Positions 22,987-55,363 of a stretch of DNA of 64,000 nt are shown here, in pieces. The stretch is from Eledone cirrhosa (Eukaryota). The notes beneath the pieces are model-generated. The model was given only the letters and a program-made list of their open reading frames with translations, did not search any database and had not been told where the DNA came from. The stretch lies in the NCBI GenBank assembly GCA_964016885.1, contig CAXHJY010001494.1:1-64000 (forward strand), written 5' to 3'. A program made the translations under genes and the position numbers. Each line of letters starts with the position of its first letter. Position 1 is the stretch's first letter.

Positions 22987-23617
22987 TTTCTTTATTAGCC
23001 ACAGGGGCACAAAAGAAGGGGACAAATATAAAGGGGGAAATTTACATACCATAAAAACGTGTAAAATACTATCACAAATACAATTTAAAAGTTAATCGAT
23101 TTTCCCCAATAGGGGGAGACAGTTCATATGGGTAACACATACCCCCGAAAAAATGTGCAACCCTCATCTCCAGGAGTACGAAGAGTTTGTACTCCTTTCC
23201 TCTCCTCCTCCTTTTCCTCAACCTACAGGCTGATATAGAGAGAAGGGCCATTCACTCGGGCCATTCTCGCCACTTTCACCTTTCATAAAACTTGCTGGGG
23301 TACAGCACCTCTCTCTCCATCCTGATTCTTCTTCCAAAGTGGTATTTGAAAAAAAGAATCAGTTGTTGGCCGGAGAGAAAGGTGTCTGACCTCAGTCCTT
23401 TTAACCTCGTCCACCATACAACCTCTTTCGCCATAGCTATCACACAAAGGAAAACCGCCTCTCCTTCGTTTTTGAAGGAGGGTGGCGGTTTGATCATGAC
23501 AATGGACTCGGTGGTCAACCGGATTGGTCCCACCCGCGACAAAAGTCGTTCTACATAGCCCCACAGGTCAGTGACGCCCGGGCAGTGTATGAATGCGTGC
23601 GCGACGGTTTCTTCGTT
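22987..23617 (-). mobile_element. Tx1-like subfamily B, 3' fragment
   Basis: Encodes EETVAHAFIHC..RVGPIRLTTESIVMIKPPP..; ends GCTAATAAAGAAA; (GATA)n on both sides on the + strand. Confidence 0.92.
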
Positions 23618-24559
23618 AAGATAGATAGATAGGTAGATAGATAGGTTGAATTATATATATATATATATATATATTATTGAAGGTACACGTTTAAGTGCGC
23701 TGCATCGAAGGAAATAACGATATGTATACTCTGGGAGTTTATTTAAAATTACCTATTGAGTACGCTGAGATGCAACCGGTCCTAGCAGTGATACCCATGC
23801 TAGTTCCGTCAACTTATATATATATATATATATATATATATATATATATATATATATATATATAAATAAATAATTTAAATAATAAATAAATCAACTAATA
23901 CCTTAACACTTCACACAAAGTAAAACATTTCGTTTTAATCATTTTCTAACCCAGAAAAACGAGAGAGAGAGACAAAAAAAAAAGGAAAAAAAAATTTTTT
24001 CTTCCTCGTAATCGTCTCTTTCTCCCTGTTTTCATATATATATATATATATATATATATATATATATATATATATATATATATATATATATATATATATA
24101 TATATATATATATTCAGCGAGAATCGTATTTCGGCTGGTAGAAAAAGCGAAACGAAACGCAAAATCGTAGAAATGCTGGCAAGCGCTCCAATAGTTAAGA
24201 AAACTAGAGCTAAACAATATGTTAAAACGCCATACAAACTGAAAAGTGGTCAAGAAGGCATTAACCACCTAAGCCAAAAAACAAATCAAGCTAAACAGGT
24301 CAAACAAAATAATATATATATATATATATATATGAGAGAGAGAGAGAGAGAGAGAGAGAGAGAGAGAGAGAGAGAGAGAGAGAGAGAGAGAGAGAGTCTA
24401 GTAATATAGAGACGAAATTGTTTTCGATGTTACAATTTCAAAAGTCCATTTTTGCCTTTCATCCTTACGGGGTCGATAAAATAAAGTACCAGTAATGCAC
24501 TGGGTAATTTGCTGGCCTTGTGCCTAAAGTAGAAACAATTATTATTATTAATAATATAG

Positions 24560-24748
24560 AGTGGTTGATTGGCAGTATCGGTAGAGGGTTGGACGCCATG
24601 CTTTCTAGCACAGAGTTACGTCCCTTTATGATCTGAGTTCAAATCCCGCCGAGGTTAACTTTGCCTTTCATCCTTACAGGGTCGATAAAATAAAGTACCA
24701 GTAATGTACTGGGTATTTGCTGGCCTTGTGCCTAAAGTAGAAACAATT
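24560..24748 (+). mobile_element. SINE family 1; further + copies at about 15043-15146, 15161-15291, 17328-17508, 20933-21012, 24450-24540, 48174-48352, 54418-54606, 59453-59638
   Basis: Same consensus. Confidence 0.85.
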
Positions 24749-27350
24749 ATTATTATTAATAATATTGTGGTTCTGTAACTCCTCATAGAGTCGTATGGTG
24801 CGCCATATTGACATACGGGGTTTCTCAGGTCTGAATACAGCAGATTTCTTCCAGAGAAGGATAGGGAGTGAGAGAAAGGAAATAAGGAAGAGATATGGAG
24901 GAGGAATCGAGCCCAGTACTAGAATGGTGCTTTTTTTTTATCGGCCTCGAAAGGATGAAAGGCGAAGTTGACCTCGACAGGATTTGAACTCAGACTGTAA
25001 AGGGCCGTAACTCCATACTGCAAAGCATGGTGTCCGACTCTCAACCGATCCTGTCAATCCACCGTTTGGAGTCAGAAAGCCGAAAGGAATGCCCTAAAGT
25101 ATTCTAACTTCGTTGATACTGACGCTCTACCGACCCTGCCAAATCGCCGTGTTATTACTATAACGGAAGTCTGACGAGCTTTTGATTTCAGACTCGGGCT
25201 AGATCGATACAGATCGAACCTTGAGCTGATCAATCACGAAAACGCGCGTGGCACCTCAATAAATGTAATGAAGATCTAACATTTCGTCCTCTTTATTATA
25301 AGTAGCATATATATATATATATATATATATATGTATATATATATATATATATATATGTATATATATATATATATATATATATATATATATATGTATATAT
25401 ATATATATATATATATATATGTATATATATATATATATATGTATATATATATATATATATATATATATATATATATATATATATATATATATATATATAT
25501 ATATATATATATGTATATATATATATATACATATATATATATATATATATGTATATATATATATATATATATATATATATATATATATATATATATATAT
25601 ATGTGTATATATATATATATATATATATATATATATATATATATATATATATATATATATATATATATTATACACTTCGATTACCTGTACAGGCAATATT
25701 TCTTAGAATGCAGTTAACGTGTGTATACATATATACGTATATATATATATATATATATATATATATATACATATACATATATACATATACATTATGTATA
25801 TATATACATATACATTATATATATACATTATATATATATACATTATATATATACATATACATTATATATATATATATATATATATATACATATATATATA
25901 TACATACATATACATACATAAATATATACATACACACAAGGTATATATATTTACATATACACACACTCACACATACTTAAATTCGTACTCACTCACCTAC
26001 ATACACACAGATTCATGCACAGATACGCACACATTCATACGACACACACACACAAACACACACACACACACACACACACACACACACACACTCTCTCTCA
26101 TATACATACATTTACATATATAATTATATATAATAATACCTATAAACAAACATACATTCTACATCTATTTATGGTAGACTTTGTATACACATCACCGTGT
26201 ATATTCTCATCTTTCCCAATTACTTAAAATGGTGGAAATACGGAAGATTTTTTTAAAAAATCCGCCATGTTTTTTTGTGAATTTTTTTTTATATATCTCG
26301 TTTCATTTCATTATTCTGTTGCTGTTGTTGTTGCTGTCGTTGTTTTTATTGTTGTATTCCCAGTTGTTGTTGTTTTTGCTAGTATTGCTAGTTTTGTTAC
26401 TGTTCCTTTCGTTGAAGAAGAAGAAGTTGTTGTTGTTGTAATGGTGGTGATTTTTTTTAGTTGTTGTTGTTGTAATAGTAGTGATTCTTTTTTAGTTGTT
26501 GATGTTGTTGTTTGTTGGTATTCTTAGTTTATATTAGTGTTGTTGTTGTTGTTGATATAGTTGTTGCTGTTGTCATATTTATTCAAATTATTTTCGCTCT
26601 TGTTTTTGTTGTTGTTGTTGTTGTTGTTGTTGTTGTTGTCGTCGTCATTGTTGTTATTGTTGTTATTTTTTACATTTGTTTCTGTTCTAGTTGTTGTTGT
26701 CGTTGCTCTACATACACATATACATACATACATACGGCGTATGTACATATACATACATATATACAAACGTACGTACATATATACATACATATAAATGATA
26801 TATATACATACATATAATATATATATATACATATCTACATACATACTGTGTATGTACATATAGTTGTACATACTCTATATTCATTATACACTATATACAC
26901 GCACTAGTATACTTACCCAGTCACACTAAATACATACATGAGTGTGTATGCACTATGTACATACATAGTGCATTAAATATATATATATATACACTCACTA
27001 TATAGTATGTATATACAATAAGATACACTGCCGGTAAAGTAGTTTGGACAACCTCGATCTATCAATAATGACGAAATCGAGAAAAAATCGATAACTGGAC
27101 AAGACACGAGGCACTCGGTGTCTTGATAGGAAAACAATGAGATAGCCTCTATGTGGTTCGTTGACATGCTAGAAATAGCAGTCAAATCTCTATATGTATA
27201 TCAATTTATCTTTCTATTTACATGTTTCTAACCACACATCTGTCTACCTATATGTCCGTCTGTCTGTCTCTCCATCTATCTATCTATCTATCTATCTATC
27301 TATCTATCTATCTATCTATCTATCTATCTATCTATCTATCTATCTATATA

Positions 27351-54699: not shown

Positions 54700-54860
54700 G
54701 AAAAGCTTCTACAGGACTAGAATTGTTTCAATCGTGATAAATCATCAGGAATGAAACAGTTCTAGTCCTGTAGAAGCTTTTCTATATTAAAACATTTAAA
54801 CCCTGCTATGTATTGAGTACCTTACTTACTGTGGTTACCCCCGATTCAACCCAGAATAAC
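54700..54860 (+). mobile_element. Fold-back hairpin plus tail element, family P2; copies at about 1262-1320, 4190-4242, 11090-11210, 20560-20742(-), 55810-55965(-), 62240-62330
   Basis: Arms GCTTCTACAGGACTAGAACTGTTTCA; variable centre; tail ..CTGCTATGTATTGAGTACCTTACTTACTGTGGTT.. Confidence 0.7.
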
Positions 54861-54926
54861 TTATATATATATATATATATATAAATCACACCCCTGTCTA
54901 TCAATCTCTCTCTCTATCTATCTATC

Positions 54927-55363
54927 GAGGGCAAACACCTTTCTCTCCGGACAACAACTTATCCCCTTCTTTAAGTATCACTTCAGAAGGAAGGTGAGAG
55001 TGGAGAGAGAGGTGCTACACCCCCAGTAAATTCGCTGAAAGGTGGGTGAATGTGGCGAAAATGGCCCGAGTGAATGGGCCTTCTCTGTATATCTAAACCT
55101 GTAGGGTGGGGAAGATAAACAGAGGGAAGACAAACGGGAACACCTACAAAACGTGTTCCTGGTGTTGAGGGTTGTTCTATCCACGGGGTGTAAAACAACC
55201 CTGCAGTAACGTCCTCCGTCCCCCTATTGGGGATTTCAATTGTTATTTTATTATATATAGTTTATTGTTATTTATTAATGTTAAAGTTATTTTTATGTAA
55301 AACCCCCCGCCGTCACGTCTTGTAATGTCCCATTTTTGTACGCCCCTGTGGCAAATAAAGAAA
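54927..55363 (+). mobile_element. Tx1-like subfamily C, 3' fragment (frameshifted)
   Basis: TFLSGQQLIPFFKYHFRRKVRVEREVLH..; ends GCAAATAAAGAAA; flanks CTATCTATCTATC and GATATCTATTTATCT. Confidence 0.88.

Follow-up and report, generated by a model that had tools for sequence, protein, structure and literature searches.

An abundant, oriented and motif-specific LINE of the L1 group associated with GATA/TATC repeats

Why should the retrotransposon copies in a single stretch of DNA lie against TATC repeats, and always in one orientation to them? The stretch examined here, referred to as the window, is the 64,000 nucleotides at positions 1 to 64,000 of contig CAXHJY010001494.1 (assembly GCA_964016885.1). 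A preliminary description proposed that it contains a Tx1-like family of long interspersed nuclear elements (LINEs) specific for (GATA)n/(TCTA)n microsatellites. The seven copies it named were recovered at their places by a BLAST search of the window with the long copy and by inspection of the sequence, and they do fall into three subfamilies. Analysis of the genome at large, together with the window, identifies a real, abundant, oriented and motif-specific LINE, a new target for a known type of element.

The genome (3.0 Gb) was probed with 22 letters of the element's 3′ end, flank excluded, a pattern that matched 15,708 exact 3′ ends. At 9,862 of these (63%) TATCTATC lies within 2–5 bp, while GATAGATA does so at only 3, and the one-way orientation relative to the repeat noticed in the window is therefore a property of the whole family. 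The competing repeat TATATATA follows at most 627 of the 15,708 ends, a count in which minus-strand sites enter twice and which corresponds to an estimated 460 or so distinct sites. In 200 kb of random genome (20 stretches of 10 kb), TATATATA outnumbers TATCTATC about 160-fold; the 12-mer density in this sample, 6.25e-5, is consistent with a whole-genome count of 359,473. Per site, the enrichment at 3′ ends is about 1,400-fold for TATCTATC and about 0.8–1.1-fold for TATATATA. Thus (TA)n, as had been supposed, is far more abundant than the target, yet it is used at background rate. Tx1 families have been called target-specific where one sequence type makes up >20% of flanks (PMC4494074); here the share is 63% of the 15,708 3′ ends and 36 of 70 truncated 5′ ends. 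An association due to chance is excluded.

Because a repeat on the 3′ side could be encoded by the element itself, the 5′ junctions of truncated copies were resolved. On contig C1 the first 100 copies were taken, with seven junctions set by hand; 30 were dropped (16 full-length copies, 12 of a subfamily designated r7, one copy of an ATT-associated family and one with a 5′ inversion), leaving 70 truncated copies. A sense TCTA 8-mer stands at the 5′ junction in 36 of the 70 and an antisense one in none, against a background of 0.16% in the 20 random 10-kb stretches. The enrichment predicted for 5′ junctions is thereby confirmed, and a self-encoded tail is ruled out as the sole cause. By context, the 8-mer accompanies 17 of 48 solo truncated copies (p about 1e-35) and 19 of 22 nested ones. 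A SINE-like (short interspersed element-like) repeat used as a flank control carries it on the left in 0 of 51 cases and on the right in 1 of 51; this repeat of ~190 bp is abundant, occurring at 9739–9927 of the window and in about a dozen other places. Full-length copies have to be set apart. TCTA-like sequence lies upstream of all 19 full-length matches (L001–L019), ending ATCTCT in 8, and at five loci (L008, L015, L197, L212, L215) a TCTA head is found between the duplicated target and the first base of the element. Lying on the element side of the duplication, the head came with the element. Full-length copies bring their own 5′ TCTA, and their 5′ ends are consequently no evidence of targeting.

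The recognised unit is smaller than an array. Specificity for arrays alone, as first proposed, has to be given up in favour of a short motif (^TATCT, best ^TATCTAT, where the caret marks the insertion point), given that two perfect TATC units are missing at 37% of 3′ ends. In a matrix of 87 copies, AAAGAAA and two variable bases are followed by T84 A83 T84 C76 T86 A75 T82. The two variable bases belong to the element, because they differ between subfamilies and, within the youngest subfamily, track internal haplotypes (CA in 14/14; TA in 14/19 versus 3/51, p 3e-8). Sites outside arrays are the most informative. Among 1,994 copies of the youngest subfamily 104 lie off-array, and of the 73 analysed 50 sites start TATCT and 9 start TATAT, against backgrounds of 0.18% and 2.8%. 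In 35 of the 73 a duplication begins directly after the dinucleotide, 33 of these being 7–19 bp long and 2 lying in tandem repeats. A C precedes the nick at 22 of these 35 clean sites, with no other constraint on that position. As the off-array duplications begin TATCT or TATAT, the recognised site is a short motif in the target DNA; read from these junctions, it is ^TATCT(AT), which would be 5′-ATAGATA^-3′ on the nicked strand. An array offers the same motif every four bases. At another repeat, two different subfamilies have inserted at the same base (L025, L203). The element has also landed repeatedly at a common dispersed repeat, which terminates in CCCGTGTATAT and in many cases continues into TATC units (L003, L007, L016, L219, L333, L343, L346, L347).

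From structure, copy number, orientation, motif, duplications, TCTA head and same-strand clustering, all read directly from sequence and counts, we infer how insertion could proceed. Our favoured reading, which we hold to be probable, is a recently expanded L1-group LINE whose endonuclease nicks the GATA strand, so that insertion occurs one way before TATCT(AT), with arrays as the commonest landing sites. The ORF2 protein (ORF2p, from the second open reading frame) would bind its own RNA, ending in AAUAAA(A)GAAA plus two bases and poly(A), and the endonuclease would nick the GATA strand at 5′-ATAGATA^-3′; because of this likely nick site, (TATC)n arrays would be met most often. The free 3′ end could then prime reverse transcription at the poly(A) boundary, perhaps aided by pairing of 2–3 nt, and the second strand would be cut 7–19 bp downstream. 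Each insertion would thereby duplicate the target and leave new TATC on both sides, and because of this later copies could stack head to tail and arrays would lengthen with successive insertions. Same-strand neighbours are expected where each insertion renews the target beside itself, and copies within 8 kb of each other share a strand in 26 of 27 pairs. What stands of the original proposal is thus oriented (TATC)n targeting by an L1-group LINE with an apurinic/apyrimidinic (APE) endonuclease; strict array specificity becomes a preference.

Close relatives in the same genome use other targets. Subfamily r7 has 281 exact 3′ ends, and in 96 of the 100 listed these are followed by two bases and then ACTCT or ACTAT, with which a 61-bp minisatellite unit begins; this minisatellite borders r7 on both sides. 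Copies of r7 form head-to-tail arrays (for example C1:4221500–4259900, L117–L120), and nearly all those seen are long; the sole truncated copy seen (L289) has a 9-bp duplication inside the minisatellite. In a quick reverse transcriptase (RT) tree r7 is nested within the TATC lineages, and because of this position it looks like a derived target switch. Both the TATC and the r7 minisatellite lineages have intact ORF2s. A sister family with RT about 71% identical (loci C1:17006100 (L063), L244–L268, L299–L328) has 1,738 exact 3′ ends, most of which run, in one orientation, into (ATT)n; judged by eye, about 6 of the 12 truncated copies that could be resolved also have ATT upstream. Relative to the window copy, the endonuclease is 76–78% identical in r7 and about 60% identical in the ATT family (60–78% overall).

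A different account, possible though we doubt it, places the choice of site in priming. Under it a read-through RNA ends in UAUCUAU, the endonuclease is loose, only nicks that pair with the tail are used, and the target is inherited by each new copy. At all 35 clean sites the first three bases beside the nick are the same, which is what pairing with a primer would require. Cleavage of the RNA usually falls 10–30 nt after AAUAAA; the 6–7 nt implied here is shorter, and most RNAs may run further. The position of r7 inside the TATC clade, with another target and an almost unchanged endonuclease hairpin loop, also favours this account, and pairing between RNA and target has been noted as a possible added determinant for L1 (PMC1950540). 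Yet a repeated tail should slip, and none of the 35 clean sites has an extra TATC unit between element and duplication. Moreover, poly(A) directly follows GAAAC in 3 of 100 listed off-array copies (L207, L224, L234), and L234 used a motif-like site, its poly(A) being followed by a 7-bp duplication that begins TATAT and is unable to pair with poly(A). The three poly(A) copies and the missing extra units favour an element RNA without a TATC tail and a nick chosen by the protein, although a short read-through tail pairing with the primer may still take part. The stronger form of the idea, that targets are set by the inherited 3′ flank of the RNA rather than by the protein and that one off-target insertion could reprogramme a lineage, we consider improbable. 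Were it true, this would be a naturally RNA-retargetable LINE, and the move of r7 from (TATC)n to a 61-bp minisatellite with an almost unchanged loop would be explained.

Several observations count against recognition of the motif by the endonuclease as favoured here. The hairpin loop of the endonuclease is nearly the same across lineages with different targets. Among the 73 off-array copies, 19 have no duplication and a further 19 are ambiguous, mostly in local repeats, and 31 of the 48 solo truncated copies have no TCTA 8-mer on the 5′ side. The poly(A) copies make up only about 0.15% of the youngest subfamily (1,994 copies), and the usual template could be read-through RNA. At the single locus examined for an empty allele (L171), the aligned contigs contained no joint skipping the insertion.

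Two further explanations would dispense with targeting. The element might itself write (TATC)n, which would be its tail on the 3′ side and its head on the 5′ side, and land more or less randomly; full-length copies do bring a TCTA head into sites without TCTA at the five loci named above, and about 54 of the first 100 TATC 12-mers on C1 adjoin a copy. This is very unlikely, since truncated copies, which are headless, have sense TCTA upstream as often as reported above, the duplicated target in unique DNA itself begins TATCT, and most arrays have no element at all (15 of 20 fetched TATC loci and every TATC array in the random stretches). Truncated-copy junctions, off-array duplications and element-free arrays largely refute such seeding. 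Random insertion followed by loss outside repeats, or spread by segmental duplication, would account for the clustering of copies and for arrays that resemble tandem duplication (r7, C1:4.22–4.26 Mb). We give it almost no credence, as selection cannot yield a strand bias of 9,862:3 or a fixed register. In addition, (TA)n, for all its excess, is not enriched, and even copies that are 99% identical differ in truncation point and lie in unrelated outer flanks. It is refuted by the data on strand and register.

Within the window the element can be followed at full length. The copy at 33837–39563 (plus strand; 5,727 bp), whose start had been placed at 33836 and is corrected here, is full-length: it runs from GGGATGG to AATAAAAGAAA, followed by CT and TATCTATC without poly(A). 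It is a two-ORF LINE. ORF2 (35864–39301, plus strand; 1,145 amino acids) comprises an APE endonuclease, RT and a C-terminal zinc finger, as identified by Pfam and fold matches. Its endonuclease contains N10, E39, Y112, D141, N143, D202, D226 and H227, which we take to be the APE catalytic set, and the RT motif YADD lies at 686. Pfam returns PF03372 and PF00078 above cut-off and PF13966 below it (E 2.5e-5). The predicted fold (predicted local distance difference test, pLDDT, 85) has human L1 ORF2p as its best full-length match (E 7e-55) and also matches L1-EN. By sequence the best match is again human L1 ORF2p (E 8.5e-48, versus 3e-19 for R2), L1 and R2 being the only solved retrotransposon RTs available for comparison; the endonuclease domain alone gave nothing significant against PDB sequences. 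ORF1 is split by a frameshift in this copy (34051–35839, plus strand; 34051–34551 and 34469–35839) and measures 594–599 amino acids in intact copies elsewhere in the genome. A model of an intact copy (pLDDT 82) has two domains resembling RNA recognition motifs (RRMs) and then a CCHC knuckle, and matches tandem-RRM proteins (E 2.5e-5) with a low whole-chain TM. The zf-CCHC match is below cut-off (E 0.04–0.05), and C-x2-C-x4-H-x4-C is kept in 9 of 9 aligned copies; a homologue search with ORF1 gave no match.

These features place the element in the L1 group of APE-type non-LTR (non-long terminal repeat) retrotransposons: ORF2 has the N-terminal APE endonuclease, RT and C-terminal zinc finger of that group, and the RT is closer to L1 than to R2, the two compared. 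Variable 5′ truncation, a fixed 3′ end, target-site duplication and the absence of LTRs are hallmarks of target-primed reverse transcription. ORF1 is of type I (RRM plus CCHC), not the mammalian Transposase_22, a composition called consistent with the Tx1 clade (PMC5203782); it also occurs in plant L1 and hence is not exclusive to Tx1. No named Tx1 protein appeared in the homologue, representative or atlas protein searches, and metagenome contigs yielded no relative. In the quick RT tree the family is one clade (SH-aLRT, an approximate likelihood-ratio test, 100) among unnamed relatives, apart from plant L1. By its architecture, the element is likely of Tx1 type.

The family is young. The claim of intact ORF2s holds, both long window copies having one of 1,145 amino acids, and among the 21 best near-full-length genome matches ORF2 is unbroken in 15 and both ORFs in 10, shares that are biased upward because the copies were picked as best matches. 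A recombinant type (L086, L189, L195, L206, L210, L212) combines the youngest subfamily's 3′ end with another 5′ untranslated region (UTR) and another ORF1, whose core shows 68% amino acid identity; the type usually ends in the dinucleotide CT. ORF2 pieces occur in 20 sequencing runs with 17 organism codes, none of the listed runs being an RNA run, and organisms B–E include pieces 99–100% identical. Single contigs from organisms B and D have the 3′ end running into TATCT; being too few, and possibly contamination, they were not used for range.

The remaining copies in the window show the same association. TCTA-type repeats stand on the element sense strand at the 5′ junction of all seven, as first reported; as evidence of targeting six of these junctions stand, and that at 33837, with its own TCTA head, does not. 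A second long copy at 29262–33724 (plus strand; 4.46 kb, 5′-truncated, youngest subfamily, terminal dinucleotide TC) is 99.4% identical to the full-length one, has an intact ORF2 (stop to stop 30001–33462) and is separated from it by an imperfect (TATC)n spacer common to both (33725–33836, plus strand). Three copies form one subfamily: a 5′-truncated copy at 22987–23616 (minus strand; 630 bp, the end of ORF2 and the 3′ UTR) with (TATC)n on both sides and terminal dinucleotide CA; a 5′-truncated copy at 27351–27713 (plus strand; 363 bp); and a 5′-truncated, 3′-clipped copy at 47551–47864 (plus strand) within a tandemly repeated TCTA-rich unit. Both 3′ ends singled out as exceptions, 27713 and 47864, are real. 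The former lies at a (TCTA)18/(TA)n border and does run into (TA)n, but it is no mechanistic exception, because its site, TC^TATAT, is a tolerated variant of the motif. A 3′ UTR copy of the youngest subfamily (47918–48036, plus strand; 119 bp, 100% identical) is followed by CA and (TATC)7, and a third-subfamily copy (54927–55363, plus strand; 437 bp, 5′-truncated) ends in GA before TATCT­AT. One flank is common to 33724/33837 and one to 47864/47918, so the seven copies are not independent. An eighth, non-scorable fragment (48092–48175, plus strand) is the 3′ UTR of a fourth subfamily cut by the SINE-like repeat. Of 33 exact TATC runs in the window, 20 are >60 bp away from any copy.

An unrelated LINE with a (TAGA)n tail on the opposite strand (window 56061–56195, 62688–63058, 3300–3669; L241, L330, L332, L341) may supply new GATA arrays for the Tx1-like family; its C-terminal translation had no Pfam match and presumably is RTE-like. 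Elsewhere in the window, a 21-bp unit is tandemly repeated in about 33 copies (8083–8789), and a long (CCA)n-rich low-complexity stretch (48560–52851) with open frames of up to 613 amino acids is probably repeat-derived.

With this family, GATA/TATC joins the few sequences known as specific targets of LINEs. Three close lineages with the targets TATC, a 61-bp minisatellite and ATT in one genome constitute a natural experiment on how APE-type LINEs choose targets, a question that loop-grafting on L1 did not settle (PMC1950540). By duplicating GATA arrays, the element is also linked to their growth, and caution is called for with GATA markers of this host, since these often adjoin mobile DNA. 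The present host seems to be an octopod. Recently active L1-Tx1 families are reported from coleoid genomes (13 families, 421 recent insertions in Octopus vulgaris), and the available parts of the octopus repeat annotations list such families without a target sequence (PMC13282606, PMC8967140). The full-text literature covered, which took in neither Repbase and Dfam nor the target list of PMC4494074, yielded no GATA/TATC-targeting LINE; a database entry may well have noted the GATA target before.

Tx1 lineages aimed at tetranucleotides are not new as such, since crocodilian Tx1 elements of the Tx1-1_Crp group already prefer (TTCC)n/(TTTC)n, and Kibi and Koshi of teleosts use (TC)n and (TTC)n (PMC4494074, PMC3812793). 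Like these, the present family is an L1-group LINE of the APE type whose main target is a microsatellite; unlike them, as far as the available portions of those accounts describe them, it uses TATC/GATA rather than a pure pyrimidine repeat, has >15,000 copies in what is probably an invertebrate host, and reaches three targets in one young radiation. Its flank matrix reads TATCTAT, not the target of the Kibi, Koshi or (TTYC)n group, and, of the first 100 copies, one has (TC)n immediately after it. With Xenopus Tx1L and crocodilian Tx1-Mar, whose targets lie inside DNA transposons, and with Keno, whose target is U2 snRNA, it shares a fixed nick and orientation in a multicopy target and tandem insertion around the duplication (PMC4494074). 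Compared with human LINE-1 ORF2p (PDB 8sxt/9k6i), the short motif preceding the nick in the cleaved strand and the 7–19 bp duplications are alike, whereas human L1 nicks at T-tracts, has a poly(A) tail and a Transposase_22 ORF1, and the present element almost never has poly(A) and has an RRM plus CCHC ORF1 (PMC1950540). Unlike Tx1L, Tx1-Mar and Keno, it has a motif of only 5–7 bp that serves as a target in unique DNA and other repeats as well. Waldo and Mino belong to the R1 clade, and Waldo, Mino and Dong differ from the present element both in clade and in repeat unit. They resemble it as non-LTR elements on short tandem repeats, including a tetranucleotide, in the form of (ACAY)n, (AC)n and (TAA)n, respectively, and the (ATT)n sister family converges on the target of Dong (PMC3812793).

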